The translations under genes were made by a program, and so were the position numbers. A stretch of DNA of 64,000 nucleotides from Candidatus Poribacteria bacterium. Its GTDB lineage: Bacteria > Poribacteria > WGA-4E > WGA-3G. Shown in pieces: positions 27,022-63,380 of the stretch; position 1 is the first letter of the stretch, and every line of letters begins with the position of its first letter. Under the pieces are notes generated by a model. The model did no database searches and was not told the DNA's origin. It worked only from the letters and a program-made list of their open reading frames with translations. The DNA lies in contig JAGFCA010000028.1 in the NCBI GenBank assembly GCA_022394755.1, forward strand, positions 3,237 through 67,236, given 5' to 3'.

Positions 27022-27417
27022 AGGGCTCTGAGTATGTAAAGTTTTTGACATAAATAGCGTATTTTCCATGTGTATATTTATAGATTACAGTTATTGGTTT
27101 TCAACATACAGTTTACTATAGTATTACATCTAAGCTATTACATTATTAAAATGATTTTATCGTTTTTCCAACATAGTACATTTTATTAGATGTGAGACAA
27201 AAATGTTACACTTTTCCTACAAATTGTAGGATTGTATCTTGTTATTTGATTGCCTTTCCTATTAGTCCCTGTCTGGGTTTGTAGCGAATTAAACCTCTAA
27301 TTCTAAAATTTTAAAAAAGTTGCAATTTTGTAGTTTTCCTTGATGGCGCTGATTCTGTTTTTACTATTATTAACGTGAGTTTGATAAATCTAATTTTATT
27401 AATCAGTGCGGTTAGGA
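27022..27417. repeat. IR-L: left copy of an approximately 400 bp inverted repeat
   Basis: The reverse complement of 27022-27417 aligns to 62373-62420 plus 63040-63380 with only scattered mismatches. The match was checked block by block by eye. The copy contains the 13-mer AACGTGAGTTTGA at 27372. Confidence 0.75.
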
Positions 27418-28275
27418 AACCTTACCTACCGGCTCTTTCGGAGAGATATTCTTGAAATATCAAGTTATGCCATTTTTAATAACAGATGTCTCATTCAAAG
27501 AGTCGGGATTCGGAGATCCCTCCTACCAAAGAACAGAACACGAAATAAAGTCATAATGTAAATAAATCAATTGAAAATGGTATTATTTATCCTATTGTCA
27601 AACTCACGTTATTATTATTCTCATAACATAATATTTATCGGTAGATTCACTCCTGAAAAATCAGATTATTGGATTAGATTATAATACACTTTGTAGTACT
27701 ACTATGTATGATAATAATTCTCTCTATGTTATTGTAACGTGTATTTATTATTATGTCAATGTGTATTTATCTATATGGTATTAGTTGCTTTGTCATTTGT
27801 TTTCTTCAATTTATTTTTATGTATTATACATGTTGTCTGAAACGCTGATAGTCGACTGCTATTGTTCCTTATGTCAGAATCTCGTATTACACGGAGAAGA
27901 AGGCTTTAGGTAGTGATGGCTTTCTTTTCTGAATCACGGATGATACAGGATTACGCGGAGAAGGGTCTTGCTACATTTATTGTTTGATCCCCGAATCTGA
28001 ATAGGATTTCACACATTCCGCTCCTCGAATCAGAATCAGAAACAGGAATCAGGAATCAGAATCAACGGTATGAACCCCATTTAGGAGTTCCCCGGGTATG
28101 AATGCCGTAGGACATTCCCCGGAACTCAAAATATAAGATAATCCCTAATACAGACAAGCCATAATGAAAATCTATTACTTGAAAATGGTATTACATCAAA
28201 CTAACGTTATCAATACATCATAAAATATAGACGGTTTCTTACTTGGGTTTGTCCCAATACATCTGTAATCAAATC

Positions 28276-29100
28276 CTATTCCTTTACCACAACCTTGCTA
28301 AACATACTCCAGATTCCTAAGCCTGCCAGAATTGATAGATTTGGAAAAAGAAGTGGTGCCAAAATAGGAGCACCATAGAGGAATTTATCTATCTGTGTAA
28401 TACCAGGAGCTTGTAGATCTGTTGTCAGGTGGAGGAAAAAACCCAGAACGCCAACTATGAAGTTAATTACTAATACTATTATACAAAACCTAAAGAATAG
28501 GGGTTCGGGTGATATAAAAAACAGTGTTCCTAAACATCCTACTGCGAATGCGCTTGCAAAAACAGGTATCCACTCAGATGGATTGAAAAATCCGTTTTGT
28601 GCATGGTCGAAAACAGAGAGTATGAAATTACCGCACCATCCAACCCACGCTATAAACACAATCCATTGTGACCATTCTAAATCTTTATCACTAATCATTC
28701 TGTTCATAATCAAAAGAAGACCGATACCTGTAAAAGCGAGAGGTGCGACAAACGGAGCTGTATAGACAATGTTTTTGAGCGTTAGATCAGAGAAAAACTC
28801 ACTGCCGAGATGGAAGAACATACCAGAAACACCGATACCTATTGCACTTGCCCCTATAGTGAAACAGCAATAGTTTTTCCAGATCCGTGTTCTACCTAAG
28901 CGTACGATAGCGAGTAGGAGTGAAGCTCCTAATGCGAAGTAGAAAGGAATCCATTCCGCTGGGTGAGCAAATGCATTGACGGAATGTGCTATAAACACAT
29001 CAAGAGCTAAAAATGCGAGGTTAGCGACAATGAAAATATCAAGTATTTTGGCAGCTGATCCTTTACTATTTAGTAGCGTTTTGTCTGAGTTCTTGTGCAA
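28276..29100 (-). CDS. Integral membrane protein (about 8 TM) with an internal duplication and conserved His residues; possible b-type heme/quinol-interacting partner of the adjacent cytochrome
   Basis: Hydrophobic profile. Duplicated motif HPAEWIPFYFALGASLL / NPSEWIPVFASAFAVGCL. Conserved His in AHSVNAFAH, FFHLG, FDHAQNGF and HLTTD. The start overlaps the upstream gene end. Confidence 0.55.
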   Translation of the reverse strand: MHKNSDKTLLNSKGSAAKILDIFIVANLAFLALDVFIAHSVNAFAHPAEWIPFYFALGASLLLAIVRLGRTRIWKNYCCFTIGASAIGIGVSGMFFHLGSEFFSDLTLKNIVYTAPFVAPLAFTGIGLLLIMNRMISDKDLEWSQWIVFIAWVGWCGNFILSVFDHAQNGFFNPSEWIPVFASAFAVGCLGTLFFISPEPLFFRFCIIVLVINFIVGVLGFFLHLTTDLQAPGITQIDKFLYGAPILAPLLFPNLSILAGLGIWSMFSKVVVKE

Positions 29101-30301
29101 TTTTTTTCATCTCCGTCATCTTCAACAACAACTCATAATTCCCGTGCCACTGTACAAAATCAGCACCCCCCATAAATGCACCATGTTTTGCTGTTCGACC
29201 ATAGTAGTGCCACAAATCAAAGTAGATAAATTCTATGGGTTCATCAAAAGGTGTCTCAGTAAGCAATCCTTCCTCACGTAGCGATTGCATCAATGTAACC
29301 GCTTCCGAAATTTTGCTATTAGTATCAATAACGACCTGTTCAGCCTCCTGATAATAACGTTCTATCTGTGTAGTTGCGTGGCATTTTAAGCATGTTTCTT
29401 TCATTGCATCTTGCCCCTGTTGATAGGTTGGTCGTTTATCTGAGATAGATGCAAATAACCAATATGAAAGTCGTTCAGTTGTATCGTGTGTAACATTTAG
29501 TCCATCTAAACCGCTTAGGTGACAGGTTACGCAAGTTGGTACTGACATGTCTGCAGTCGTAAGTGATTTGGGTGGTGCTTTAAGATTCATCTCTGATTTC
29601 TGTGCGTTATAAAGGACACCATGCTTCGATTCATGATAAATTTCAATCTGTGAATGGTCTGGTCCCATGTGGCATTGACCACAAGTTTCGGGTTCGCGTG
29701 CTAAAGCAACAGAACTTGAATGTCGTGCATGGCAACTCGTGCAGTTCCCTATAGAACCATCAGAGTTCGGTTTTCCAATATCGTGGCATCCATAACATCC
29801 TACAATCGTAGCACTTTCTCCTTCAATAATTGCTAAAGAATTAGCAGGACGTTCAACAGCTCCTTTATGATACTTTTCAGCAAAGGCAATCTGTTCTGCA
29901 GTAAAATCTTTTGCTCCAGACACTGCTGCCCATGCGGGGGCTGCATGTCTACTTCTGAGAAACTGCGAATATTCAGTTGAATGGCATTCACTACAATTTT
30001 TAGCTGTAAGGTGTTGTGCTATTGTAAACCCTCGGTGTGCTTGTGTTTCCTGATTCTCCACAGCTTTGTGGCAATCTAAGCAGCTTACACCGTGTTTTGC
30101 GTGTTCGCTTCGTTCAAATTGATGGACAACAGCAGACGTAGTACGACGATGACATTCTGCACACTTCCCTGAGGCACGTACGAAATCGGCACTTGGTTGG
30201 TTAACTTCTACCGTTGGTCGTTTCGCATTCAAGATCAACACGATAGCAATCAGAACAATCCCGAGAAATACCGAAATAAAGATAGATTTAAATGATTTCA
30301 T
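29066..30301 (-). CDS. Membrane-anchored octaheme c-type cytochrome
   Basis: N-terminal signal/anchor. Eight CxxCH motifs: CAECH, CLDCH, CSECH, CYGCH, CTSCH, CGQCH, CVTCH and CLKCH. Confidence 0.85.
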   Translation of the reverse strand: MKSFKSIFISVFLGIVLIAIVLILNAKRPTVEVNQPSADFVRASGKCAECHRRTTSAVVHQFERSEHAKHGVSCLDCHKAVENQETQAHRGFTIAQHLTAKNCSECHSTEYSQFLRSRHAAPAWAAVSGAKDFTAEQIAFAEKYHKGAVERPANSLAIIEGESATIVGCYGCHDIGKPNSDGSIGNCTSCHARHSSSVALAREPETCGQCHMGPDHSQIEIYHESKHGVLYNAQKSEMNLKAPPKSLTTADMSVPTCVTCHLSGLDGLNVTHDTTERLSYWLFASISDKRPTYQQGQDAMKETCLKCHATTQIERYYQEAEQVVIDTNSKISEAVTLMQSLREEGLLTETPFDEPIEFIYFDLWHYYGRTAKHGAFMGGADFVQWHGNYELLLKMTEMKKIAQELRQNATK

Positions 30302-30320
30302 AACAATTTGATACCGTAAA

Positions 30321-31400
30321 TTAAAGCCACTTTTTTAGTTTGAAATAGATAAACATTCCGATACTAATAGTCAACATAGCTAACAGAACAACCGGATAGC
30401 CCCAAAGTGAATCAAGTTCAGGCATGAATTTGAAATTCATGCCATAAATACCAGTGATGAATGTAAGTGGTATAAAAAAAGTGGCAACAACGGTTAATAC
30501 TTTCATCACTTCATTCATCCTATGACTGATAGCGGAAGTATAGGTATTAAACAATTCCGAAACAGCAATTCGTAGAGTTTCTATTGTGTGTATCACCTGT
30601 TCTAAATGATCATAGACATCTTGAAAATACAGATGTGTGTCTTGTGTAATAAATTGTATTTCACCCTTTACCGTCTCTTCCAGTACATCACGTAACGGAA
30701 GTATTGGTCTCCGTAGAAATAAGAATTCCCTTCTCAATGAATTAATCTCAGTAAGTACTTCTGGGGTGGGATTGGTTATAGCTTGCTCTTCTACTGCCTC
30801 AATTCTGTCGTTAAGCTGGTCAATGATTATAAAGTAGTTATCGACAATAATATCAATTAACGCACACAACAAATAATCGACACCCATCTGTCGAATTCTA
30901 CCCATTTTATTCCGTAGTCTGTCTTTTACAGAAGCAAATAGATCTCCAGGTTCCTCTTGCAGAGAGATCAGAAAATTCTCACCAATAATCAAACTGATTT
31001 GCTCTTTAGAAATATCTAATGATGTCGTAGGGTAACCGATGCTTTTGAGAATTATAAATACATACTTATCATGTACTTCTATTTTAGGTAATTGTGTGGA
31101 AGTCATTAAATCCTCAAGCACAAGAGAATTGACACCAAAATGGACTCCGATCTCTTCAATAATTTCCGCATCATGAATACCCTCAGCATGAATCCATAAT
31201 ACAGTATCATCATTTCTATAAGGCAGACATGCCTCAACTGTTTGAACTATATTCTCGTCAAAAAGTGTTTCATTGTAATTGAAAACACTAATTTGAACAG
31301 GGTCTGTTCGTTCTTCCCCTACATAAACAAGCGTTCCTGGAGGAAGTCCAACTTTCCTATTGGTATATTTTTTTAATGAACTTATTAATGGAATCCTCAT
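30321..31400 (-). CDS. corA: Magnesium/cobalt transporter CorA
   Basis: C-terminal two TM helices with the YGMNF signature. Length of 359 aa. Confidence 0.9.
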   Translation of the reverse strand: MRIPLISSLKKYTNRKVGLPPGTLVYVGEERTDPVQISVFNYNETLFDENIVQTVEACLPYRNDDTVLWIHAEGIHDAEIIEEIGVHFGVNSLVLEDLMTSTQLPKIEVHDKYVFIILKSIGYPTTSLDISKEQISLIIGENFLISLQEEPGDLFASVKDRLRNKMGRIRQMGVDYLLCALIDIIVDNYFIIIDQLNDRIEAVEEQAITNPTPEVLTEINSLRREFLFLRRPILPLRDVLEETVKGEIQFITQDTHLYFQDVYDHLEQVIHTIETLRIAVSELFNTYTSAISHRMNEVMKVLTVVATFFIPLTFITGIYGMNFKFMPELDSLWGYPVVLLAMLTISIGMFIYFKLKKWL

Positions 31401-31436
31401 TTTATTCTCAATATTTAGGAGTTATGTTGATACATT

Positions 31437-31826
31437 TTAATCCGATACTTTACCACCAATAACAATCAAGAAAGAACTATCTTTCGTTGCATGAACCGAG
31501 TGAAGGACATCACCAGTGAAGGTAACCCCATCCCCTTTTTCAAGTGTAATTTTATTTTTGTTTGATGTGAAGATTATCTCTCCTGTGAGCATAACAACGA
31601 CCGCAGCAGAGGGTGCTCGATGTTCACTCAATGTTGTTTCTGCTTTCATAACAGTCAAAACGACTGTCATTTCATCTCCCCGTGCTAAAGTAAGAGATGC
31701 TCGACCTGAAGTGGCAAATTCGGCTTCTTCCATAAGGTTTTCAGTCATTGAAACAAACGGAAAACCTTGGGTTAATGTTGTATTTAGATCTACTGGTCTA
31801 TATGGTCTTTCGTAAGAGGCATTCAT
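31437..31826 (-). CDS. Cupin-domain protein
   Basis: Small beta-barrel cupin-2-like sequence with conserved His residues (EHRAP, HSVHA). Confidence 0.5.
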   Translation of the reverse strand: MNASYERPYRPVDLNTTLTQGFPFVSMTENLMEEAEFATSGRASLTLARGDEMTVVLTVMKAETTLSEHRAPSAAVVVMLTGEIIFTSNKNKITLEKGDGVTFTGDVLHSVHATKDSSFLIVIGGKVSD

Positions 31827-32094
31827 TATATTCTCCTGATTTAGAGTAAATAGGTAAAAGCAGGCACATTGTTCCCCGAAATACCTATGATGATTCTACC
31901 AAAACGCGCAAACCTTTTCAAGGCATGTAAATTTTGACAGTGTTTACAGACCTTTATCAGCCAAAACACCTATCCCAGGCAAGGTTTTGGTAGTGTGTTA
32001 ATGGTTTATAACGTCGTGAAAGTCGTAGATAGGTCGAGAACTTTGAAAAAGGAAATCACGAATAAGAGCTTATAATTCCGAATACTTTCCTGCT

Positions 32095-32736
32095 CTATTT
32101 TTCGTCAACCCATTCCAATGGCTTGTTCTCTAAATATGGTCGGAGAAGTTCACGTAGTTTTCGATGTGCCTTATGTAAATGGGTTTTTACCGTACCTTCT
32201 GATCGATTTATATGGAGAGCGATCTCTTTCATAAGAAGTTTCTGATCATACCGTAGTTTAAAGACCTCCTGTTGCTTAGGTGGCAGATGTGTTATTGCTT
32301 TGGTGATCATATCCCCAAGTTCTTCCATCTCTACAAAGTGTGAAGGTGATGGAAAACTACCAAATAAGAGACACTCTTCTGGTGTTTTAGGTAATTCATC
32401 ATATAAGTAATTTTGTCGTCTTTTCTGTTTTCGCTGAAAATCGATGCAACAATTCTCAGCTATACGGTATAACCAACTATAAAAAGCGGAATCATGTTTG
32501 AATCTTGGCAACGCTTTATATGCTTTTAGGAATACTTCTTGTGAGAGATCTTTTGTGGCTTCAACGTCTTTAACGTATTTGTAAATAAGTTTAGCAATCT
32601 GATCCTGATATTTTAGTACTAATGTATTAAATGCCGATGTATCACCATTTTGGAAACGTGTAACGAGTGTAATTTCATCAATTGAATCGAGTTCATTAGT
32701 TGACAACATATCTACAGTGTTTTCTATTTTTTGCAT
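32095..32736 (-). CDS. ECF-family RNA polymerase sigma factor
   Basis: Region 2 (FLKAYKALPRF...WLYRIAENCCIDFQRK) and region 4 (ALHINRSEGTVKTHLHKAHRKL). Confidence 0.85.
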   Translation of the reverse strand: MQKIENTVDMLSTNELDSIDEITLVTRFQNGDTSAFNTLVLKYQDQIAKLIYKYVKDVEATKDLSQEVFLKAYKALPRFKHDSAFYSWLYRIAENCCIDFQRKQKRRQNYLYDELPKTPEECLLFGSFPSPSHFVEMEELGDMITKAITHLPPKQQEVFKLRYDQKLLMKEIALHINRSEGTVKTHLHKAHRKLRELLRPYLENKPLEWVDEK

Positions 32737-33251
32737 ACTTATCTCTCCTTGAGCAGTTGTTTTATTATTTCATGCATATTGGATTATCTTAGATTCACAT
32801 AAAATCGACTTTGGTTTCTCTCAATTCTTTATTAATCTTTATAATTATTAGGTGATAAAAGAGAGTTTACAGTAAACAACGATGGAGTAGGACGGCATAC
32901 TACGTGGGACAACTGTATTTAAGGTGAAGGACTGGAATCCCAACTACAAGGAGGCAACCTCATACAATTGACACCCATGGGTAGATTGTATTCACCCATG
33001 CAAAACACACTTATGCCGATATGACATTATATATACACACCAAAAACCAAAAAATGTTCCCAAAATTTGGTTTTTCTTTTAATCATCGCATTCTTGTCTA
33101 AAACCCGAAATAGGCAATAGGAAGTTTATGAACAAAGTAAAGTGAATGGTAATAGAAATGGTATAACTATTCTGTGTGCATTCTGCTTTTACTTGACAAT
33201 AACAGTTTAGTAGCGTAAAGTGTTTATAGTGCTTAGAGATAAGGTATACCT

Positions 33252-34634
33252 ATGCGCCGCTTTAGTATTCAAACCAAAATTGTCCTCCCTTTTCTGCTCC
33301 TGTTTGTATTTGTTTCGATCCTCGTGCCATTGATAACTGTGGAATTATTCGTCTGGAAATACAGTGAACAGTTTACACGTGAAACAGAAGGATGGCTGAA
33401 TGTCATAGTCGACACAGGATATTTCTTGGATAATATCAAGGTGAAACAGGCGTATAGTGTAGAAATCATGATTTTTGGATCGGATTATACGCTCAACTCT
33501 ACAACTCTCACCGGTCTCTCTGATGAAGAACAAAACTACGAATACCTTGCTAACCTTTTTGAACTAAAGGATATCAAGCAGAAATCTGAAGACCAAGCCG
33601 CGAATACCTTACCCATTACCCATGACATCACACTCGGTGGTATTCCTTACAAAGTATTTTATCGAATCCTTCCTCAAGGCAGATACTACTGTCTTTTACG
33701 TCCTATGGATGAAATAGCAGATGCTAAACGGACGCTTACATGGTCAATGTTGGGAATTGCGGTGTTTGTTATTGCCCTTGTGGCTTTTATCAGTCAGAAA
33801 ATAGGAAAAAATCTAACAGATCCGATTAAAGATTTAGTTGGTTTTACAACACAAGTAGCAGAGGGTAATCTTGATAATCAGTGTGAAATTAAGACACAGG
33901 ATGAAATTGGGGATTTAACTGTTGCGTTTAACCAGATGACTCATGATCTAAAACAATCGCGGGACAAGTTAATTCAAGCGGAACGTTTAGCAACTGCGGG
34001 AAAAATGTCTGCCTCATTTGCCCACGAAATTCGGAATCCATTATCATCTATGCGGATGTTATCGCAGATGTTAATGAAAAAGCCTGATGTAACACCAGAA
34101 CAGCAAAAATCTCTCGAATATATCCTTGAGGAAATCGAAAGAATTGATAACATTGTCAAAGGTTTGATGGATTTTGCACGTCCGACAACGCTTAATCTTG
34201 AGCAACAACCGTTACCCCCTGTATTACAGTCCGTTTTAGCATTGATGGAAGCAAACTTAGAGCATCACCAGATTCATTTAGTATCTGATTTTTCAAGTGA
34301 TCTTACGGAGTTTAAATTCGATTCGGATAAAGTGAAACAAGCATTTATGAATGTTGTTTTGAATGGAATGGAAGCAATGCCAGAAGGTGGTACATTAACT
34401 GTGTCTACTTTCAAAGAGAAAGCTGCTGTGTGTATCCAAGTTATGGACACAGGAGTAGGTATATCTGAGGAAGATATCGACCATCTATTTGAGCCGTTTT
34501 TTACTCGTAAGGATAAAGGGACAGGCCTCGGATTAGCAAATGTAAAACGGATTCTTGAGGAACATAACGGTAAGATTGAAATAGATAGTACTCTTAGTGA
34601 AGGGACAACGGTTACGATGTGGTTGCCGTGTTGA
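33252..34634 (+). CDS. Sensor histidine kinase (TM, HAMP, HisKA, HATPase)
   Basis: HAMP region ITDPIKDLVGFTTQVAEGNLD. H-box SFAHEIRNPLSSM. N/G boxes NVVLNGMEA, DTGVGI and GTGLGLA. Confidence 0.9.
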   Translation: MRRFSIQTKIVLPFLLLFVFVSILVPLITVELFVWKYSEQFTRETEGWLNVIVDTGYFLDNIKVKQAYSVEIMIFGSDYTLNSTTLTGLSDEEQNYEYLANLFELKDIKQKSEDQAANTLPITHDITLGGIPYKVFYRILPQGRYYCLLRPMDEIADAKRTLTWSMLGIAVFVIALVAFISQKIGKNLTDPIKDLVGFTTQVAEGNLDNQCEIKTQDEIGDLTVAFNQMTHDLKQSRDKLIQAERLATAGKMSASFAHEIRNPLSSMRMLSQMLMKKPDVTPEQQKSLEYILEEIERIDNIVKGLMDFARPTTLNLEQQPLPPVLQSVLALMEANLEHHQIHLVSDFSSDLTEFKFDSDKVKQAFMNVVLNGMEAMPEGGTLTVSTFKEKAAVCIQVMDTGVGISEEDIDHLFEPFFTRKDKGTGLGLANVKRILEEHNGKIEIDSTLSEGTTVTMWLPC

Positions 34635-34948
34635 CCCCTCAGAACTGCCCAAGCAACAATAATGGTAAAACCTCAAGCACTCTCATATTTCCTTGCGAAC
34701 TTACTCTCTCAAGCACGTCGTCTCTAATCTTAGTAAAACCTAACTAACTTGCGACTTCCTGAAGAATTGATTTCCAAACAAGACAACTATATACAGGTGT
34801 TTTTACAAACATTCTGAAGAAACACCCAAACAAACCCCGCTGGGAAACAACGTTGATTTGCACTTGAACTTATTTATATGAGTTATGTCGGTGTGAGAAA
34901 CTCACTGAAACATTGGAAAAGCAGAAAAATGTCCAAACTTTAGTTCTT

Positions 34949-35542
34949 TTAAGCAAGGGAACATAATTCCTGATCATGATAACTATCGGCTTTGATGTCC
35001 TTAGCGTTATGTCGATACGTAGTACAGACGCGATAATCATTTTTACATTTGGCGCAGGTCTTCTCTTGATGTGCAGTCGTATCCTGACAGGACCAGAGGA
35101 TTGTCGACTGACAACTACAGGGACCGATGAGATGTGAGTCAAAGGTTGCCGTTTTTTTCTTACATTTCCTACATAGGATGACAGGCGGAACCCCGTATTT
35201 CGCAAAAAGATTGTTGACGATTTCTTCAGCGGCAGCCGCACCGAATCTTTCGGTCAATTCCGCTGTAGTAACAGTCCTTGCTTCTGCGGTAACGTCCGTA
35301 TCTTCTGCAAGTGCGGCGAAGATTTCACGATAGGCTTCGCCGAATTCTGCGTCCCGTTTCTCAATCTGTTTCTGAAGTTTGAGACAATCTTCCATGGTAG
35401 GATAACGTCTTTTGAATAATTCGGGAGAGAGTCGTAGAAAATTGAATGTGTCGGGATATTTCTCGATTACAAGGTCATTGCATTCACGCAACTTTAAGAC
35501 CCTGGACTCTATGCGTATGGTGTCTTTCATCTTGTTTTGCAT
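34949..35542 (-). CDS. Hypothetical protein with Cys-rich C-terminus (putative metal-binding)
   Basis: ORF of 197 aa. C-terminus CRKCKKK...CSCQ...CAKCKNDYRVC. Overlaps the upstream protease gene by 16 nt. Confidence 0.4.
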   Translation of the reverse strand: MQNKMKDTIRIESRVLKLRECNDLVIEKYPDTFNFLRLSPELFKRRYPTMEDCLKLQKQIEKRDAEFGEAYREIFAALAEDTDVTAEARTVTTAELTERFGAAAAEEIVNNLFAKYGVPPVILCRKCKKKTATFDSHLIGPCSCQSTILWSCQDTTAHQEKTCAKCKNDYRVCTTYRHNAKDIKADSYHDQELCSLA

Positions 35543-36789
35543 AACTTTTCCTTTGCCTTCTTGAAATCCGCTTCAGATGCGGCTTGTTGTCCAAGTTTTT
35601 CTATTGCAAGCGCACGATTATAGTAGACATCAGCATCTTCAGGGGACAGGCAGAACGCAGCATCGTAATCTAAGATCGCACCACGATAATCCCCAAGTTC
35701 ATCTTTCGCATACCCACGATTATAGTAGACATCAACATCTTCAGGGGACAGGCATAACGCAGCATCGTAATCTAAGATCGCACCACTATAATCCCCAAGT
35801 TCACCTTTCGCATACCCACGATTAAAATACACATTGTCGTACTGTGGATTTAACCGGATCACTTGTGTGTAATCTAAGACAGCGGACCGAAAATCACCAA
35901 GTGCCTCTTTCGCAAGCGCACGATTAAAATAAGCTACGACAAATTCAGGATTGAGACGGAGTGTCGTATCGTAATCTGACACGGCAGCACTAAAATCGCC
36001 AAGTGCCTCTTTCGCAAGCGCACGATTAAAGAACCCATAGAAATACTCAGCGTTTAATTTTATAGCACAATCATAATACGATATAGCTTTTTTATACTTA
36101 CCTTTCTCTGATTGGGCGGAACCCAAAGCTATCTTCGTATAGGCTCTTATTTCGGGGCGTTTCTGCCACGTTAGCAAAGACTCAACTTGCCTTGAATTCG
36201 ATATCAGTTCTCGCAGCACTATTGTTGGAATAGCATTTACAAAAATATAACTCTTTTCACTATTCTCAATTTCACAAGCAGAAACAACAACACCGACGAC
36301 TTCACCGCTGTTGTTCAACACAGCCCCTCCACTATAACCTGGTCCCACATTATCTTTGGGGCGTTTCACTTTTATTTGAAAGAGTTTGTTACAACGTGGA
36401 TCAATAACAACACCCATCATACCATTATATTCGCTGTTATGTCCATACCCAATAAAATAAACAGGTTCACCCTTTTTAAGGGCTTCAAGATTTCCAATCG
36501 GTAGTGGAACACCAGGTCCGGAAACTTTTATCAACGCCAGATCATTTCTGGTGTCAAACGCTGTTACACCTACAAGCGAGTACCTCTTTGTAAGTGAATG
36601 ACCACCACAAATAGAGACTTTTGTAGATCCATTTATTGCATGCACGTTTGTCACAACTATGTCGCGCGTAACAAAAAAGCCACTCGCCAATCTTCTCGTT
36701 AACCCAAATTTTTTCCTCTTTATGCAAGCGGTTGATCTACGGTTGCTGATTATTTGAGACAATGTGTCTTGGTTAACTCCCATACCCAT
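35527..36789 (-). CDS. Trypsin-like (S1/DegP-type) serine protease domain fused to about 6 C-terminal TPR repeats
   Basis: Protease catalytic triad context: TNVHAI (His), DLALIKV (Asp) and GYSGGAV (Ser). Repeated TPR units YFNRALAKEALGDF..AVLDY. Confidence 0.75.
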   Translation of the reverse strand: MGMGVNQDTLSQIISNRRSTACIKRKKFGLTRRLASGFFVTRDIVVTNVHAINGSTKVSICGGHSLTKRYSLVGVTAFDTRNDLALIKVSGPGVPLPIGNLEALKKGEPVYFIGYGHNSEYNGMMGVVIDPRCNKLFQIKVKRPKDNVGPGYSGGAVLNNSGEVVGVVVSACEIENSEKSYIFVNAIPTIVLRELISNSRQVESLLTWQKRPEIRAYTKIALGSAQSEKGKYKKAISYYDCAIKLNAEYFYGFFNRALAKEALGDFSAAVSDYDTTLRLNPEFVVAYFNRALAKEALGDFRSAVLDYTQVIRLNPQYDNVYFNRGYAKGELGDYSGAILDYDAALCLSPEDVDVYYNRGYAKDELGDYRGAILDYDAAFCLSPEDADVYYNRALAIEKLGQQAASEADFKKAKEKLCKTR

Positions 36790-37185
36790 GTGCTAACCTC
36801 TCACCTTCTACAAAGTCTAAGACGCTTTTGCGTTAATCTGATGAATATGACATAATAATCAGAGGCTACCATACAATAAAAAAGGGTGTTAACCAAATAA
36901 TTATACAAGGTTTAGCAAAATACCGTCTGAATCTCGCTGTATCATCTCAACGAAAAGAATAATAACATTTATGACAAAATTGTCAATGAAAATCAATCTG
37001 AGTATTAATTGACTTACATGGTTAAAACCTCTGTACTCATTGAAAGCAAACAGACTTCCACACAATCCTTTTCAAATCAATTGTAGATGGAATCAATGCT
37101 GAATACTTGTATGAATTCAGCATTGGTTCGTAAGGTATAACCATTTGCGAAACGATTTGAAGGTCTCCCTACAATTCTGATAAAC

Positions 37186-38241
37186 CTATTTTATTGTCCC
37201 CCATTGTGTTGGTTTCTTACCTTCAGGAGAAACTGAAAGCACATCATCACTTATCCAATCAATATAAAAATGATCTCCTTCAAAATCTGTAAGTCGTTTC
37301 ATTTCACCTGTCTTGATATTATACTTATAGATAGTATGAGGTGGGTTTTCTCCCCATCCAAGAGGTAACTCGTTCAAGGCTGCCTTCCTTCCAGTAAAAA
37401 CAATAGATTTATCATCGTCCATCCAATCAATGTCTATACAACTTATGTCTATAGGTATATTTAACCGTTTTACCGTATTGCCGTCTTTATCAGCGATAAA
37501 ATACCGAAATGCCTTGGTGATCATAGATACAATTTCCGGTTTTCGTTCCTCCCACGTATAGTCAATTTGTCTATATACGAAATATCTTCCATCGGATGAC
37601 CATTTTGGTGCCCATCTACCTATATTCAACTCATCCCCAATTGGTGGGGCTAACACTTCTCTAATGTTATCACCATCGGCATCCATAATATAGATACTAT
37701 TTCCAGCTCTCTCCCCACCCAACTGAACAGGTGTGGAAAATATAATGTATTTACCATCCGGTGACCAATCGAGTTGCGCTATGTTTAGATCGTCAGCTAT
37801 CTTCTTGATTTTGCGGGTCTTGATATTTATCACACGAACACTTCGTACGTTTTTTCTATTTATCTCTTGAATCATAGAGAATACAATATAATTCCCGTCT
37901 GGTGAAAAAGCAAACTTACCAAGATCAGCTTTCAGCTCCTTGGGTCCGATGAATTTTTGAATATTTGAACCATCTGGATTCATAAGGTATAGGCCTCCGA
38001 AGTGGCTATGATATATCATAAGTCCGATCAGTTCACCATTGATTGCCCAACGGGACTCATACTTTTCGCGTATTTCGTTCCGACGGAGTTGTGTCACATT
38101 ATCCCCATTATCGTCCATAACGTAAACACCTTCATCACCTTTGTGTATATCGTGTCTTACGGTAAAAAGTATCTTGGCATCCGTCATTGTTGAAGAGAGT
38201 ATTAGTACAATACAAAAAATTACCTGTTTCAAAAAGGGCAT
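37186..38241 (-). CDS. Periplasmic TolB-like / PD40 beta-propeller protein
   Basis: Signal peptide. Repeated (F/W)SPDG(K/N)YI(I/V)F(S) motifs. Confidence 0.7.
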   Translation of the reverse strand: MPFLKQVIFCIVLILSSTMTDAKILFTVRHDIHKGDEGVYVMDDNGDNVTQLRRNEIREKYESRWAINGELIGLMIYHSHFGGLYLMNPDGSNIQKFIGPKELKADLGKFAFSPDGNYIVFSMIQEINRKNVRSVRVINIKTRKIKKIADDLNIAQLDWSPDGKYIIFSTPVQLGGERAGNSIYIMDADGDNIREVLAPPIGDELNIGRWAPKWSSDGRYFVYRQIDYTWEERKPEIVSMITKAFRYFIADKDGNTVKRLNIPIDISCIDIDWMDDDKSIVFTGRKAALNELPLGWGENPPHTIYKYNIKTGEMKRLTDFEGDHFYIDWISDDVLSVSPEGKKPTQWGTIK

Positions 38242-38730
38242 ATCTACTATCCTTTTGCATATTAATTATTGAAGAACCCCTTCAAAGAGGAGTTCTTCAA
38301 TATAGAACAGTTGTTTACTCGGTAATATCAACCGCTTCATCTACACTATTAAATGTCACATCATTCTCAATAAAATAATGATCTTCTCCATTAGGACCTG
38401 ATACGACAAGACGAACATACGCACTGGAAGTGTAACTCTGCATATTAAGATCGACACCATAATGCGTTATGGAATTACTATTTGAATATGATCCAAAATT
38501 AGGACCGATACGTTTCGCTTCGACTTGACCGTCCTCATTTTTCGGTTGTTCCTTTTCTTTTACCTCGCGTCCCGTTAATACATGTCTACAACGGGAGTAA
38601 ACTCTTCTCCTTTTGATACCTTTCTGGTACCATTATTTCAATCAATATCTGAGACATTGATTTGAAGGAAAAGTACTATATTTTAGCACATCTCCCGTTT
38701 ACAGCAAACAAAACGTCATTGAATACGCTA

Positions 38731-38979
38731 TTACCGTTTGCTATTTTGGAATAGCGACACACCGAAATGCTCACGCACTTTCCTAATAATCACACGTTTG
38801 CGCGACTTCACTGTGCTTTCTGGAATGCCTAACTTCTCACCGATTTCAATGGAAGTCCATCCTTCAAACCATAATTCAATGACCATCTTGTATATAGAAT
38901 TCATTTTATCAATTACCTCAAATATAAAAAGTGTAACTTTTTTCATATTTTCGTTGCACAGACAATACAACAACAGCAC
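38731..38979 (-). CDS. Stand-alone sigma-70 region-4-like HTH protein (possible truncated ECF sigma)
   Basis: ELWFEGWTSIEIGEKLGIPESTVKSRKRVIIRKVREHF matches sigma region 4.2. There is no region 2 upstream. Confidence 0.45.
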   Translation of the reverse strand: MLLLYCLCNENMKKVTLFIFEVIDKMNSIYKMVIELWFEGWTSIEIGEKLGIPESTVKSRKRVIIRKVREHFGVSLFQNSKR

Positions 38980-39274
38980 GATCTTCTGACTGAGTATTTA
39001 GGATTAAATCTCTGTTTTTATACCTTATTTTTTGTCTGTATATTAGGATTAAATGTTTGTTTTGATACCTTTTGACCATCAGAAATATCAGTTATTAAAC
39101 AGGATTCTCTACGTGAAATATGTGTAATCCACGTAATCCAACACAAGATAAGCGAATTAATGTCAAACTTTACATACCCTGAATCTTGATTTCTATTGAA
39201 TCAAAACGACTAATTACCTATAATGTACAGCAAAAGTTATCTACATATATATAAAGAACAAGGACGGTCTGATA

Positions 39275-43435: not shown

Positions 43436-44533
43436 ATGAATGCATTGTCAAAAGATAATAAATCCGTAGTTATTTCTGCTGTGGATCTATTTTGTGGTGT
43501 TGGCGGTCTGACTTATGGTCTCCACAAATCAGGTATAAACGTAGCTGCTGGAATAGATGTTGACCCAACGTGCCGGTATGCATACAACAAAAATAATGAA
43601 GCTGAGTTTATTGAACAAGACATTCGTGAAATAACAGCTGATGATCTTAACGATTTCTATCCAGAAGGTCATCTCAAATTACTCGCTGGATGTGCCCCAT
43701 GCCAACCATTTTCATCTCTACCTAAGAATAGAAGACAACCTGCACAAAATGATGAAAAATGGAACTTACTATCTGAATTTGGGAGACTGGTTGAAGAAGT
43801 TGTACCTGAACTTATCACATTTGAAAATGTTCCGCCAATTCGGCATCAGAACATATATTTAGAGTTTCTTGATAAATTGAAGTCTCTTGGTTATAAATTT
43901 GATTCCGATATAGTTTACTGTCCCAATTATGGAGTTCCACAGATACGGCGTCGGCTTGTTGTTATAGCCTCTATCTTGGGGAAAATCGATCCTCTTTGTG
44001 AAACACATTCACCGTATGGTCACAATGGTTTAGAACCTTATTCAACCGTTAGAGATACAATAGGGAATCTCCCTAATATTGCTGCGGGGGAAAAGTGCGA
44101 AACTGATAAGTTACATGTATCACCAAGACTCTTAGATAAGAATATTGAACGAATTAAACAATCAAAACAAGGTGGAACATGGGACGATTGGCATAAGGAC
44201 CTACTTGCACCATGTCATAAAAAAGCGTCCGGACAAACTTATAAGTCTGTTTATGGACGTATGAAATGGGATGAACCTTCACCTACGATAACAACACAAT
44301 TTCATAATTATGGTAGCGGTCGTTTTGGGCATCCTGAACAGAATCGAGCCCTTTCAATTCGAGAAGGAGCTCTTTTGCAGACATTCCCGAAAGATTACGA
44401 ATTCGTTGATCACGATCATCCCGTTCAGATTCTCCAATTAGGAAAACATATTGGAAACGCTGTCCCTGTGAAACTTGCAACTACCATCGGCTATCATATA
44501 CAAGATCATGTAAAGGATTATTATCATGATTGA
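43436..44533 (+). CDS. DNA (cytosine-5)-methyltransferase (Dcm family)
   Basis: Motif I DLFCGVGGL. Motif IV GCAPCQPFS. Motif VI ENV. Motif VIII QIRRRLV. C-terminal motif X GNAVPV. Confidence 0.9.
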   Translation: MNALSKDNKSVVISAVDLFCGVGGLTYGLHKSGINVAAGIDVDPTCRYAYNKNNEAEFIEQDIREITADDLNDFYPEGHLKLLAGCAPCQPFSSLPKNRRQPAQNDEKWNLLSEFGRLVEEVVPELITFENVPPIRHQNIYLEFLDKLKSLGYKFDSDIVYCPNYGVPQIRRRLVVIASILGKIDPLCETHSPYGHNGLEPYSTVRDTIGNLPNIAAGEKCETDKLHVSPRLLDKNIERIKQSKQGGTWDDWHKDLLAPCHKKASGQTYKSVYGRMKWDEPSPTITTQFHNYGSGRFGHPEQNRALSIREGALLQTFPKDYEFVDHDHPVQILQLGKHIGNAVPVKLATTIGYHIQDHVKDYYHD

Positions 44534-50148: not shown

Positions 50149-50149
50149 C

Positions 50150-50627
50150 CTGCTCCCTGCCTAAGTTCTAAGGCTATAAACACATGTTATGCACAATTGC
50201 TGTGCATAACTCCTAAATTCTTGTTGATAACTTGTTGATAACTTGTTGATAACTTCACTCGCGATAATTGTATTAACAAATTGTCAATAATTACAAAATT
50301 GAATACACATGTTATCAACACCCCTAATCTCAAATACCATAAACGATTAGAGCAGTTATCAACTTATGCACACCCCCTACTACTACTGCTAATTACAATT
50401 TTAAATTATATGTAATTATTAATATAATTAATATAGGTGAATAATTACGAAATAGATAATTTTAAATTTAGGTTGTAGATAATAGGTATATTTGCAAGCA
50501 ATCATTATGGTATAGTTTATTAGTTGATATGAGATTTTTTTGAATGACAAGTTTATATAGTAAGGAAATTTCAAAATCTTATATTAAACTGAAGATAAAT
50601 ATATACACCCAAACGAGTGGAGTTTAG
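50150..50627. promoter_or_regulatory. Probable oriC: DnaA-box cluster plus AT-rich DNA-unwinding element
   Basis: Three tandem CTTGTTGATAA units (TTATCAACA boxes) at 50221-50256. Further boxes TGTTATCAACA, GTTATCAACT and inverted TTATGCACA/TGTGCATAA. An extremely AT-rich tract follows at 50390-50480. Confidence 0.7.
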
Positions 50628-51788
50628 ATGTACCTTGAACGATTGTGCTTGCGAAATTTTAGAAATTATCAGGAGTGCGACATAACATTTCATTCCCCAG
50701 TAACCTTGATTGTTGGTAGAAACGCTATGGGGAAGACAAGCCTACTGGAATCTGTATATTTTCTGTGTACCGGTGAATCCCACCGATCTAATACCGCAGC
50801 AGAGTTAATACGTCATAATACTGAAGGGTTTGCTGTTACAGGATATTTCCAAAGTGATAAAAGACCAGGTACACATATCCGGCTTGAAGCAGTTAAACCA
50901 CGACAAGGTCCGTTTCGTTTAAAAACTGATGGTGTTCTCCAACGGAGACGCTCGGATTGGATAGGACAGTTCAATGTAGTCGTTTTCTCACCAGAATCAT
51001 TGGATCTTGTAAAAGGATCTCCGACATTCCGCAGACGATGGATTGATTTACTCTTATGTCAATTAAATCGTGAGTATTTAGATGAACTGCAACGGTATCG
51101 TGGAATATTGCAACACCGGAATGCGTTATTAAAACAGTTGAGTATAGGGAAAGGTGTTGCTAATGAGGTGTCTGTATGGGATGGATTACTAATTGAATCC
51201 GGAGTCGCTTTAATTGGGGCTCGATTTACTGCCTTGAAACGTGTAAGTGTTGTTGTGGAAAATACCCATCTATCGTTGACAGGTGGAATGGAACGGTTAA
51301 TATTGGAATATATCCCCGGAATAGAGAATGGTGGAGAGGCTATATCAGATATAACTAATCTAACCGAACATTTTCGTGAAGCAGTAACAAAAGCTCGTCG
51401 TGATGAAGTGCGTCGGGGTGTAACCCTTGTTGGTCCACATCGTGATGATTTTACATTGGCATTAGAGAAAGTAGATGCTGAAGATGAAAAATTACGAGAA
51501 ACAGCTCGTACCTATGCCTCACAAGGACAACATAGGACAATTGCCCTTGCTTTAAAACTTGCTGAGTTAGAGTATATAAGAGAAGATACTGGAAGTGCTC
51601 CACTTTTCCTTTTGGATGATGTTTTATCTGAATTGGATGTAAAGAGACGAGCGTATCTATTATCCTATCTTCAAGGGGTTGCTGCCCAAACAGTTATTAC
51701 CGCTACCGATAAAGATGTTATGGGAGACGAACTACCAGATGTTCACCTGTTAACGGTTGAAGAAGGTGTCATCGTAGATGGAAGTTAG
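50628..51788 (+). CDS. recF: DNA replication and repair protein RecF
   Basis: Walker A GRNAMGKTSLLE. ABC signature and D-loop LLDDVLSELD. Confidence 0.95.
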   Translation: MYLERLCLRNFRNYQECDITFHSPVTLIVGRNAMGKTSLLESVYFLCTGESHRSNTAAELIRHNTEGFAVTGYFQSDKRPGTHIRLEAVKPRQGPFRLKTDGVLQRRRSDWIGQFNVVVFSPESLDLVKGSPTFRRRWIDLLLCQLNREYLDELQRYRGILQHRNALLKQLSIGKGVANEVSVWDGLLIESGVALIGARFTALKRVSVVVENTHLSLTGGMERLILEYIPGIENGGEAISDITNLTEHFREAVTKARRDEVRRGVTLVGPHRDDFTLALEKVDAEDEKLRETARTYASQGQHRTIALALKLAELEYIREDTGSAPLFLLDDVLSELDVKRRAYLLSYLQGVAAQTVITATDKDVMGDELPDVHLLTVEEGVIVDGS

Positions 51789-55310: not shown

Positions 55311-55477
55311 CACATTCGATATGTCATATTTTTCCGATTTAACAGGCACAGACGGCATATTCATAACTTAACATAAGTTTGATAATTGGAATCGGTAATT
55401 TGTTGCTTCAGCGCACCGAGTATAAATGATTTATCAAACTCAGGTTATACTACCAACTTAGATTATAAGAGAAGGAA

Positions 55478-57922: not shown

Positions 57923-57973
57923 AAAATGGACAACAAGTTCCATTACATTAATTGAATAGGAGTAAGTTAGGAG

Positions 57974-61236: not shown

Positions 61237-61263
61237 GTATCAGAAACTAATTAGGAGGTATAT

Positions 61264-62244
61264 ATGTCGAAAACATTATATGCTGGGACAATTGGACAGA
61301 GTATTTGGCGAAGCACTGATATAGGTAAAACGTGGGATAGAGCAAGTAATGGTATCTTTCCAGAAGCAGATATTCGTGCTATTGTTGTTGATCCTACAGA
61401 TTCAAATATCTTGTATGCTGGCACAGAAAAAGGCGTTGTTAAAACCACTGACGGTGGTAATATGTGGGAACATATGCCAAGTGAAATGGATAGTAAAGAG
61501 GTCTGGTCACTCGCTATCCATCCAACAAATCCAGGAACTCTCTTTGCTGGAACGTGTCCATCCGCTTTTTACAAAACAACTGACGGCGCAAAAACATGGA
61601 CAAAACTTGATGCAGAACTCGCACAAGAATGTGAAGGTATTCCTATCATACCCCGTGTTACAACTATCATAATTGATCCAGAAGATCATGATACCATCTA
61701 TGCGGGAATTGAAATTGATGGAATGCGTCTCAGTAATGATGGCGGTAAGACATGGACAGAACGAAGTGAAGGTTTGAGTAGTTTAGACATACACGGTCTT
61801 ACGGTGGTACCGGGTGAACAAAAAACACTTGTCGCTGCAACAAATAACGATGTTTGTATCACTACGGATATGCACAGTTGGACACCATTGAAAGTTCGTG
61901 AACATTATCCGTGGCCATACTGTAGGGCAGCCTTTTATCTTAACGGAGACAACGCTAAGGTATTTATTGGAGCAGGAAACGGACCTCCGGGTGACCAAGG
62001 TGGAATATTTTTTATGAAAGATGCAAGTGATGCTTCGGATGCAGAAGCTATTCAATGGGATCGCTCTGATATCGGAATTACAGCAAACAGTACAATTTGG
62101 TGTTTCGGATATAATCCGAGTGTTGATGGATTGCTAATTGCCTGTAGTGTAAGCGGTCAACTATTTCTGAGTGAAGACAACGGTGATTCATGGGAGAAGT
62201 TATCACATGAATTCGGAGAAGTACGCGCATTAGCAATTGCTTGA
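61264..62244 (+). CDS. BNR/sortilin-type (Ycf48-like) beta-propeller protein
   Basis: Repeated S/TxDxGxTW motifs (STDIGKTW, TTDGGNMW, TTDGAKTW, SNDGGKTW, SEDNGDSW). Confidence 0.7.
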   Translation: MSKTLYAGTIGQSIWRSTDIGKTWDRASNGIFPEADIRAIVVDPTDSNILYAGTEKGVVKTTDGGNMWEHMPSEMDSKEVWSLAIHPTNPGTLFAGTCPSAFYKTTDGAKTWTKLDAELAQECEGIPIIPRVTTIIIDPEDHDTIYAGIEIDGMRLSNDGGKTWTERSEGLSSLDIHGLTVVPGEQKTLVAATNNDVCITTDMHSWTPLKVREHYPWPYCRAAFYLNGDNAKVFIGAGNGPPGDQGGIFFMKDASDASDAEAIQWDRSDIGITANSTIWCFGYNPSVDGLLIACSVSGQLFLSEDNGDSWEKLSHEFGEVRALAIA

Positions 62245-62372
62245 TACGGTATATAGGTTTGCTAATAGATAATGTAGTTAGCGAACCTATCCACTAATGC
62301 TTATTTGATGGATTCCGACGATAACCTTTACTTCTGTATGGTATTGATTTAACGTGAGTTTGACAAGGTGCG

Positions 62373-63380
62373 GTTTCCTAACCGCACTGATAAATAAATT
62401 TAAATTAATCAAACTCACGTTTGATTAAGGAATAACTTGCTCAGATATCCGGGGTGTGTAAACTTTTGGCACTTTACAAAAGTGGTTTTATACCTACTAT
62501 CGTTTGGGAAATTTCCGAGAGGATACAACAAAATTTCAAAGTGTTATGGCATTTTCGATATTTTACTAACGAGAATCTAATTCCAAAAAAGATTTTGGAT
62601 AAGATAAAGGGTAACCCCGGGGAACGCCTAATGGCGTTCATACCCGAGGAATGTGTGAAATCCTATTCTGATTCGGGATAAAACAATAAATGAAGCAAGA
62701 CCGCTTCTCCGCGCAATCCTGTATCATCTGCGATTCAGAAAAGAAAACCATCACTACCCAAAGGCTTCTTTTCCGTGTAATCCGAGATTCTGCATAAAGA
62801 GCAATAGCAGACGACTATCAGCGTTACAGACAACATGCATAATACAAAAAAAATGAAGAAAATAAATGACAAAGCAACTAATATCATAAAGATAAATATG
62901 CATCGACATAATAAATACACACTACAATAACATATAGAGAATTAGTATAATACATCGTAGTAAAATAAAGTGTATTAAAATATAATCCAATAATCTGATT
63001 TTTCTGGAGTGAATCTGCCGATAAATATTATGTAATAATAGTAAAAACAGAATCATCGCTCATCAAGGAAAACTACAAAATTGTAACTTTTTTCAAATTT
63101 TAGAATTAGAGGTTAAATTCGTTACAAACCCAGACAGGGACTAACAGGAAAGGCGGTGAAAGAACAAGAAACATTCCTACACTTTGTAGGAAAAGTGTAA
63201 CATTTTCTCACACATCTAATAAAATGTACTAAGTTCGAAAACGATAAAATCATTTTAAAAATGTAATAGCTTAGATTTAATGCTACTGTAAACTGTATAA
63301 TGAAAACCAATTACTGTAATCTATGAAATATATACATGGATAATACGGTATTTATACCAAAAACTTTACATACCCAGATA
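62373..63380. repeat. IR-R: right copy of the inverted repeat, interrupted by about 620 bp insertion (62421-63039)
   Basis: 62373-62420 and 63040-63380 match the reverse complement of 27022-27417. The 13-mer AACGTGAGTTTGA and its complement lie at 62350 and 62409. Confidence 0.75.
62454..62681 (+). CDS. Small hypothetical ORF (75 aa) inside the IR-R insertion
   Basis: ORF only. No recognisable motifs. Lies within the copy-specific 620 bp insertion. Confidence 0.25.
   Translation: MCKLLALYKSGFIPTIVWEISERIQQNFKVLWHFRYFTNENLIPKKILDKIKGNPGERLMAFIPEECVKSYSDSG

Follow-up and report, generated by a model that had tools for sequence, protein, structure and literature searches.

We analysed a window of 64,000 nucleotides from a Candidatus Poribacteria bacterium (contig JAGFCA010000028.1), in which an inverted repeat brackets a 35-kb segment containing the probable replication origin. 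The two arms of this repeat are most probably diverged copies of a single transposable element, non-coding and non-autonomous, which at 924 bp is a long representative of a Poribacteria family of miniature inverted-repeat elements (MITEs). What seems to be a purpose-built bracket around the origin is explained in this way by two insertions of an interspersed non-coding transposon. The feature itself is ordinary: one insertion lies upstream of a tRNA operon and the other upstream of an rRNA operon, with no sign of an origin inversion.

Both arms are AT-rich (30% GC, compared with 39% for the window) and lie in non-coding DNA adjoining outward-facing stable-RNA genes, a setting given in the earlier note and seen again in the tRNA and promoter positions. 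The left spacer separates a gene for a 274-aa membrane protein from the promoter of a tRNA-Ser operon, and the right spacer separates a gene for a 326-aa beta-propeller protein from the promoters of tRNA-Ala-23S-5S; in the relatives L001 and L002, tRNA-Ala(TGC) is followed by 23S and 5S rRNA. We also confirmed the gene content reported between the arms, which enclose dnaA, the DnaA-box cluster, recF, dciA, gyrB, gyrA, a C5-methyltransferase and GHKL-ATPase pair, and a multihaem cytochrome. The landmarks are as follows.

Ending at 26959: tRNA-Ser(TGA), beside the left arm
26984..27012, minus strand: sigma-70 consensus promoter of the tRNA-Ser(TGA)-Ser(GCT)-Arg(ACG) operon, a perfect TTGACA-17-TATAAT, conserved in L081
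48814-50148: dnaA
50187..50482: DnaA-box cluster between dnaA and recF, probable oriC, with the left arm about 22 kb away and the right arm about 12 kb
63701..63862, plus strand: three tandem promoters of the tRNA-Ala(TGC) operon
63882-63954: tRNA-Ala(TGC), beside the right arm

The inverted repeat around the origin segment is real and not a product of chance, having been recovered by both a repeat search and blastn, although its first description as about 400 bp matching almost base for base needs correction on both counts. In the blastn repeat search, positions 27018-27372 matched 63387-63033 at 89 to 90% (E 1e-111 to 1e-125), and past a 239-bp insertion in the left arm the homology resumed, pairing 27612-28019 with 63047-62648 at 87 to 89% (E 1e-122 to 1e-133), with a GC-rich hairpin next in both arms (28096-28066 and 62616-62644). 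An inter-arm alignment of 27031-28118 with 63374-62616 gave 768 alignable columns at 90.6% identity, so that the repeat comprises about 770 alignable bases and roughly 1 base in 10 differs. The differences include 30 transitions and 42 transversions, and the longest identical runs are 38 and 33 bp. A further match, between 27372-27427 and 62421-62366 (89%), had been counted as part of the repeat; it is instead a separate, smaller element of a second MITE family (family 1), located at different places in the two arms.

The right arm is the complete copy, as indicated by its TIRs, its target-site duplication and its absence from L001 and L002.

62442..62450: target-site duplication, copy 1, CAGATATCC
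62451..63374, plus strand: right arm, complete non-coding MITE-like element (family 2), 924 bp
62451-62472: 5' TIR, GGGGTGTGTAAACTTTTGGCAC
63354-63374: 3' TIR, whose reverse complement reads GGTATGTAAAGTTTTTGGTAT
63375..63383: target-site duplication, copy 2, CAGATATCC
62351..62421, plus strand: family-1 mini-MITE of 71 bp just outside the element, with flanks TGATTT and TGATTA

The 9-bp duplication is exact on both flanks of this copy. Its TIRs, about 20 bp long, are imperfect: GGTGTGTAAACTTTT and the reverse complement GGTATGTAAAGTTTT agree at 13 of 15 positions, after which the match runs on through GG with a 1-nt offset. When we scanned the window for direct 9-mer pairs 300 to 3000 bp apart, this was the sole pair among 1490 with a TIR (score at least 11) immediately inside. 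The 3' edge of the right copy is also the point at which the homology between the arms ends. Since the right arm carries its own target duplication on both sides, it inserted on its own.

The left arm, by comparison, is a truncated copy that was later interrupted.

27031..28118, minus strand: left arm, 5'-truncated, corresponding to positions ~166-924 of the right copy in the inter-arm alignment
27031-27051: its 3' TIR, separated by 18 bp from the downstream -35 box of the tRNA-Ser promoter
27372..27610, plus strand: nested family-1 MITE of 239 bp, TIR AACGTGAGTTTGA(TAA), at a site that is empty in the right arm
27366-27371 and 27611-27616: 6-bp target duplication ATTATT of the nested MITE
28020..28118: (GAATCA)n microsatellite (28027-28064) and two tandem GC-rich REP-like hairpins
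28140..28208, plus strand: 3' half of a partial family-1 MITE, bordering the left insertion on its gene-proximal side; its solo TIR lies at 28196-28208

A 5' TIR and a second target duplication were looked for at the left arm, where one flank could be inspected, and were not detected. Because this copy has one TIR and no detectable second duplication, we infer from the right copy that it arose by transposition. The right arm has a single GC-rich REP-like hairpin (62616-62647). Hairpins similar to these are also present in four other loci (L003, L006, L010 and L016).

We compared both sites with the corresponding spacers of the closest relatives. At the left site, L081 and L082, which share about 88% nucleotide identity with the window, have 28 bp in place of its 1216 bp (27026-28241); at the right site (62313-63603), the corresponding stretch is 97 bp in L002 and 613 unrelated bp in L001. 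Gene order runs straight through both junctions: window positions 27025 and 28242 correspond to 10890 and 10861 in L081, and 62312 and 63604 to 16845 and 16943 in L002. The absence of both arms from the same spacers in these relatives implies that the insertions are recent. Their age is further reflected in the divergence between the arms: this is 9.4%, while the window and its relatives differ by 29 to 45% at four-fold sites, which makes the arms younger than the species split and fits insertion after it.

The ends of the element recur well beyond this window. Family 2 is defined by a TIR of about 20 bp, GGTGTGTAAAGTTTTTGGCA, and a 9-bp target-site duplication; family 1 combines the TIR AACGTGAGTTTGATAA with a 6-bp duplication. 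Allowing up to 1 mismatch, the family-2 TIR 15-mer GGTGTGTAAAGTTTT had 14 occurrences, spread over 9 of the 80 other Poribacteria loci (~1.7 Mb), compared with an estimated ~0.6 chance matches across the 1.8 Mb scanned. In these loci the ends bound elements of 124 to 421 bp, and inverted pairs in L044, L030 and L015 are flanked by 9-bp duplications with 0 to 1 mismatch, although members in L006 and L014 have no such duplication. The relatives have the ends and some subterminal motifs in common with the window element, but not the interior. The window itself holds four family-2 TIRs, one of them a solo end at 39164-39178. Of the 924-bp variant we saw two copies, both within the window; a search of 1.8 Mb of other Poribacteria DNA found no match to its interior, nor did two exact 21- to 22-mers recover it in scans of the collection. 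The earlier note had set a specific bracketing pair against a generic interspersed element, and the TIRs and target duplications largely bear out the latter at the level of the family; the multi-copy character is shown by this TIR family and not by the 924-bp variant itself.

MITE activity in this lineage also appears recent, as a family-1 MITE with its 6-bp duplication has entered one arm only. The spacer downstream of the gene for the 326-aa protein carries family-1 and/or family-2 ends in four other loci (L011, L014, L015 and L023); spacers next to stable-RNA operons and downstream of this gyrA-linked gene are insertion hotspots. Within 1.8 Mb of Poribacteria DNA, we found neither a TIR pair enclosing a transposase nor an autonomous element with matching ends. 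A literature search returned no paper treating both Poribacteria and miniature inverted-repeat elements, and these two families are documented here with no earlier description found in the literature searched.

Taken together, these observations suggest the following course of events. After the split from the sequenced relatives, copies of the element, probably mobilised in trans by a DDE transposase, would have inserted into two permissive spacers. Because one spacer lies on each side of oriC and the two insertions point in opposite directions, the result is an inverted repeat around the origin, and the bracketing itself would be incidental. The left copy has lost its first ~165 bp, including one TIR, and would later have been interrupted by the family-1 MITE and gained the expanded microsatellite. 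Truncated, lacking one TIR and carrying the later MITE and microsatellite, it is now immobile.

We considered whether the arms serve as a recombination substrate, such that RecA-dependent exchange flips the 35-kb oriC segment, two isomers coexist in the population, and the repeat is maintained or consequential for that reason. The geometry is suitable: the arms are inverted, lie on opposite replichores, one ~22 kb and the other ~12 kb away from the DnaA-box cluster, and offer identical runs of 38 and 33 bp, so that an exchange between them would invert the segment as the earlier note had proposed. Inversion of the segment in related genomes, which that note had suggested looking for, did not appear; both junctions are collinear with arm-less relatives (L081 and L002), from which it follows that the assembled order is ancestral and that no inversion has been fixed. 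Nor have the arms been homogenised by gene conversion, given their 9.4% divergence, an insertion of ~240 bp and several indels. The near-identity that exchange calls for is lacking, since the arms are 90.6% identical, their indels are arm-specific and one of them alone carries a MITE, and mismatch-repair control of recombination should strongly depress homologous exchange at such divergence. The Logan contigs L083 and L085, assembled independently from the same run, agree with the flanks and stop at the hairpins, and they contain no alternative junction. We conclude that the arms could in principle recombine, that their divergence disfavours this, and that a role in flipping the origin is unlikely. 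Origin-symmetric inversions are the commonest bacterial rearrangement, and some have breakpoints with repeated transposase-bearing sequences (PMC9584773). The window resembles these X-alignment cases in having inverted homologous sequences on opposite replichores close to oriC; it differs in that no inversion is seen, the order being that of repeat-less relatives, and in that its arms are 90.6% identical and unequally far from oriC.

A more speculative proposal combines position with function. By analogy with eukaryotic retroelements targeted to tRNA genes, the element might be directed to strong stable-RNA promoters, or kept there by selection, always in one orientation, and/or the pair might drive a reversible flip of the oriC segment, giving two isomers in the sponge-associated population; we regard this as quite improbable. 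Both copies have the same orientation toward the stable-RNA operon, an arrangement with a 50% chance under random insertion that a functional relationship would also predict.

That arrangement bears equally on the idea that the repeat is a duplicated regulatory region of stable-RNA promoters, serving for upstream activation, insulation or the binding of nucleoid proteins, for example. The copies do lie upstream of strong consensus tRNA and rRNA operon promoters and are AT-rich, as are UP elements and the Fis-site upstream activating regions of promoters such as E. coli rrnB P1, which lie directly upstream of strong stable-RNA promoters. Those regions, however, span ~40 to 150 bp, occupy fixed positions and are conserved among orthologous promoters, whereas here a 0.9-kb lineage-specific insertion with transposon ends stands at a variable distance from the -35 box (18 bp for the left copy, 326 bp for the right). 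In L081, L082, L001 and L002 the orthologous promoters of tRNA-Ser and tRNA-Ala-23S are conserved without the repeat, the substitution pattern between the arms, with its indels and MITE insertion, looks neutral, and the TIRs and target duplication account for the presence of the repeat without any function. Duplicated upstream activating regions, one of the alternatives first offered for the repeat, are thus not supported, and we consider a regulatory role very unlikely.

Still less plausible is a coding or RNA function, in which each arm would specify either a small protein or a long structured non-coding RNA. The arms fold more stably than shuffled sequence (z-scores of -3.4 and -3.7), but the values are similar on both strands, as expected of palindromes or hairpins in DNA and not of a strand-specific RNA. 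Substitutions between the arms broke 34 predicted pairs and kept 4 on one strand (30 and 16 on the other), and no covariation signal was found. Rfam returned only the flanking tRNA for 26900-28300 at E up to 10, and nothing in either arm in a scan of the whole window at the gathering threshold. The left arm contains one strong promoter-like site (27759-27731), which the right arm does not conserve. All six frames contain stop codons (15 to 42 per frame), and Pfam gave no match in the arms at E up to 1. The right arm does hold hydrophobic ORFs of 61 to 62 aa, but these are frameshifted or stopped in the other arm, and a search of 5.8 billion proteins found no relative of the 62-aa ORF.

Least credible is that the arms are the ends of a large composite or ancient integrated element carrying the 35-kb segment: bracketing inverted repeats resemble a composite transposon and the segment includes islets without counterpart in relatives (34.7-39.2 kb), yet the empty sites with identical flanking order refute this, the right arm is flanked on both sides by its own duplication, the arms are younger than the species split, the segment's gene order is also present in relatives without arms, and the enclosed ispH-dnaA-recF-dciA-gyrB-gyrA block, with oriC between dnaA and recF, shows conserved synteny in the seven other Poribacteria loci that we compared.

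Whatever their history, such repeats break short-read assemblies of Poribacteria symbiont genomes. They are also potential substrates for origin-proximal rearrangements, which is useful to bear in mind when reading synteny breaks in Poribacteria MAGs.

Among known elements, an insertion sequence in L004 (2813-4207, with a DDE_Tnp_1/DDE_5 transposase) has the TIR ACTAAAGTTTGGACAAT, whose core TAAAGTTTGGACA is common to the family-2 end and clearest at 39158-39178. Because it makes a 7-bp duplication (TCTAAAT) instead of 9 bp, and its ends do not include the GGTGTG found outermost in the MITEs, it can at most be related to the partner element. Bacterial MITEs such as Correia of Neisseria, RUP of Streptococcus pneumoniae and Nezha of cyanobacteria are non-autonomous derivatives of DDE insertion sequences. 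The transposable element described here resembles them in its TIRs, its target duplication of fixed length (9 bp) and its non-coding, intergenic nature, in having common ends with heterogeneous interiors interspersed in related genomes, and in its empty sites in relatives and the nesting of one MITE in another. Its length of 924 bp is several times the usual size of such elements (usually under about 500 bp) and exceeds the 124 to 421 bp of its relatives, and for this reason we class it as a long MITE-like, non-autonomous element and not as a textbook MITE.

Comparison of the window with itself revealed an inverted repeat with one arm on either side of the likely replication origin. Two main blocks aligned, 27018-27372 with 63387-63033 at 89 to 90% identity and 27612-28019 with 63047-62648 at 87 to 89% identity (E-values 1e-111 to 1e-133), together with a short block in which 27372-27427 matches 62421-62366. 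A gapped alignment of the arms contained 768 common columns at 90.6% identity, with 30 transitions, 42 transversions, and longest identical runs of 38 and 33 bp. Relative to the right arm, the left arm has three additions: an insertion of about 240 bp, an expanded (GAATCA)n tract, and one more copy of a hairpin. Taken together, the self-comparison and the gapped alignment indicate that the repeat described in an earlier note is real, but that it is about twice the ~400 bp reported and that its arms, said to match almost base for base, are about 10% diverged.

The gene content of the window was confirmed by tRNA, Rfam, open reading frame (ORF), and Pfam scans; with the arms, promoters, and DnaA boxes added, it is as follows:

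Left of the left arm, all minus strand: dnaX, SRP RNA, tRNA genes, tadA, and tRNA-Arg/Ser/Ser
27012-26984, minus strand: promoter of the tRNA-Ser operon, a perfect TTGACA-17-TATAAT
27031-28118, minus strand: left arm
Between the arms, first part: 274-aa membrane protein, multihaem cytochrome, CorA, ECF sigma factor, histidine kinase, and a small islet
Between the arms, second part: GH2, a dehydrogenase, and a C5-methyltransferase with a GHKL ATPase
Between the arms, third part: ispH, dnaA, recF, dciA, gyrB, gyrA, a TPR protein, and 574-aa and 326-aa proteins
50187-50482: DnaA-box cluster, likely oriC
62451-63374, plus strand: right arm
63701-63862: three tandem consensus promoters upstream of tRNA-Ala(TGC), which ends at 63954

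Around the origin (50148-50628), the order is dnaA, DnaA-box cluster, recF, and no dnaN intervenes. Located between the dehydrogenase gene and ispH (43436-46517), the genes for a 365-aa C5 cytosine methyltransferase and a 663-aa GHKL-type ATPase (HATPase_c_3) overlap by 8 bp, and no recognizable restriction endonuclease domain was found in this pair. In the two closest relatives, tRNA-Ala(TGC) is directly followed by 23S and 5S rRNA genes with no 16S gene (L001, 17667-21001; L002, 17222-20549), and this arrangement is therefore an rRNA operon without 16S. The tRNA-Ala(TGC) operon adjoins the 326-aa gene only in the clade of the window, L001, and L002; the tRNA gene was absent from the ~5 kb examined downstream in the other 78 Poribacteria loci. 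At 63583-63640, ~60 bp ahead of rRNA promoter P1, there is a perfect 15-bp stem (AAACGAAGGTAATTT...AAATTACCTTCGTTT) with a T run after it. The stem is reduced to 6 bp in L001 and L002 and may insulate the rRNA promoters against transcription reading through from the insertion.

The ends of the repeated element were located through an exact 9-bp direct repeat, CAGATATCC, which flanks the right arm at 62442-62450 and 63375-63383. Just inside these repeats lie imperfect terminal inverted repeats (TIRs), GGGGTGTGTAAACTTTTGGCAC at one end and, as the reverse complement, GGTATGTAAAGTTTTTGGTAT at the far end, and among 1490 direct 9-mer pairs spaced 300 to 3000 bp apart in the window this pair was the sole one with such termini. 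The 3' edge of the right element is also the limit of homology between the arms. With the ends placed at the limits of homology, or at those of the entire insertion, the TIR test was negative; another candidate, a 21-nt inverted pair (62495-62515/63583-63603), was borderline chance (rough p ~0.15) and had no family support.

The TIR 15-mer, allowing at most one mismatch, had 14 matches in 9 of the 80 other Candidatus Poribacteria loci retrieved by a GyrA search, compared to an estimated ~0.6 chance matches over the 1.8 Mb scanned. These matches mostly formed inverted pairs spaced 124 to 421 bp apart, and in three loci (L044, L030, and L015) such pairs are flanked by 9-bp duplications with 0 to 1 mismatch. 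Members of this family (family 2) have their ends and some subterminal motifs in common, and their interiors differ. Judged by these sequence features, 62451-63374 (924 bp) appears to be a long member of the family 2 MITEs. The left arm corresponds to approximately positions 166 to 924 of the right copy and keeps the 3' TIR (27031-27051), 18 bp from the -35 box; the absence of the first 165 bp and of the 5' TIR marks it as a truncated copy. The arms are thus very probably an intact and a decayed copy of a noncoding, MITE-like transposon whose family is interspersed among Poribacteria. Exact-word scans, which are insensitive to copies ~10% diverged, found no match to the 22-mer TTAGTCCCTGTCTGGGTTTGTA in genome or metagenome contig collections, from which the source genome is absent, and none to a 23-mer of the core in viral contigs. 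The single metagenome-contig match to GGAATGTGTGAAATCCTATTC (L084) was attributed to chance, as the similarity does not extend.

The age of the insertions could be assessed from relatives, of which L001 and L002 are the nearest by GyrA (94% identity). On the left side, a protein annotated JT359_07360, on a 68,207-bp contig of a Poribacteria MAG, matches the 274-aa protein at 100%, and an 88% homologue is found on a 5.06-Mb ENA contig (L081) and on a second contig (L082). L081 and L082 align collinearly with window 23051-27025 and 28242-31707, and the 1216 bp of the left insertion correspond to just 28 bp in them, directly upstream of the same tRNA-Ser promoter. On the right side, window positions 62312 and 63604 map to L002 positions 97 bp apart, and in L001 this site is occupied by another sequence, of 613 bp. 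Given these empty sites and collinear flanks, both arms originated in the lineage of the window; the gene order across them is ancestral, and hence no inversion has been fixed. Divergence between the arms (9.4%), set against 29 to 45% at four-fold sites between the window and its relatives, agrees with insertion after the split.

Look-ups of the 274-aa and 574-aa proteins led to two independent Logan contigs from the same sequencing run, L083 (window 28082-35683) and L085, which agree with the window flanks; no exact record was found for either the 326-aa protein or TadA. L083 terminates in REP-like hairpins at the left-arm edge and L085 a few hundred bp beyond the 326-aa gene, close to the right-arm start, so that neither reads through an arm and the arm interiors are represented by the MAG contig alone. 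In more distant Poribacteria (L086 and L087, compared with window 28276-30301), the multihaem cytochrome/274-aa pair lies ~2.3 Mb from gyrA among unrelated neighbors, so that only the window/L081 clade has the pair close to the origin and beside the tRNA-Ser operon. The 326-aa gene of distant Poribacteria has no tRNA-Ala(TGC) gene behind it, and synteny there is too scrambled to inform on a past inversion between the two spacers.

A second MITE family (family 1) accounts for the insertion in the left arm (27372-27610), whose TIRs are 13 to 16 bp long, AACGTGAGTTTGA(TAA), and whose flanking duplication, ATTATT, is 6 bp; the matching site in the right arm is empty. Further family 1 copies are as follows:

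62351-62421: copy of 71 bp
28140-28208: partial copy
55370-55446: degenerate copy of 77 bp, in the gyrB-gyrA spacer
Relatives' loci L011, L015, and L024: copies, with the duplication CAGAAT in L011

MITE ends also occur downstream of the 326-aa gene in L011, L014, L015, and L023, which marks this spacer as a recurrent landing site. Both insertions share 8 bp (GTATTGAT) beside the family 1 TIR on their gene-proximal side, a match too short to tell whether one site was copied from the other. The GC-rich hairpins that border each arm on its inner side are found again in L003, L006, L010, and L016, and the gyrB-gyrA spacer of L006 contains three tandem REP-like hairpin units (9538-9855).

An islet of ~4.5 kb (34700-39200), encoding a 197-aa ORF, a trypsin-like protease with TPR repeats, and a PD40 beta-propeller protein, is missing from L081 and L082, where the histidine-kinase-GH2 gap is 238 bp. 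Its right edge bears a solo family 2 MITE end (39158-39178). On its left edge is ATGTCCAAACTTTAGT (~34929-34944), a solo IS end that matches the TIR of an IS in L004. That 1.4-kb IS (2813-4207; DDE_Tnp_1/DDE_5 transposase, 20-bp TIRs ACTAAAGTTTGGACAAT..., 7-bp duplication TCTAAAT) occupies the dnaA-recF spacer of L004, which places its insertion within or next to the origin region.

Inversion of the origin segment, as proposed in the earlier note, is permitted by the arrangement: the arms flank oriC in inverted orientation, and exchange between them would flip ~35 kb while keeping gene orientation relative to replication. Origin-symmetric inversions are common (PMC9584773). No sign of such an exchange was seen; gene order is the ancestral one, the divergence between the arms shows no homogenization, and their longest perfect match is 38 bp. 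The proposal of an upstream activating region of stable-RNA operons was not supported, as the element is missing from the orthologous promoters and its distance to the -35 box is 18 bp in one case versus 326 bp in the other. Neither arm had an Rfam match; folding z-scores (-3.4 and -3.7) were similar for the two strands, a result that DNA palindromes would be expected to give, and the majority of between-arm substitutions break predicted RNA pairs. No cluster of DnaA boxes or parS was found in the arms, with isolated one-mismatch DnaA-box matches at 62594 and 63467 in the right insertion and none in the left arm. Coding capacity was likewise lacking: every frame contains stops, Pfam gave no match, and the small ORFs of one arm are interrupted in the other; a 62-aa ORF had no relative among 5.8 billion proteins, yielding no candidate for further element copies, and exact look-ups of 61-aa and 51-aa ORFs gave no match.

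Overall, the observation in the earlier note was confirmed and its interpretation only partly right. The bracketing of oriC by the arms is most simply incidental, and the terminal repeats in Poribacteria loci, with 9-bp duplications in three of them, have the anatomy of a MITE family.
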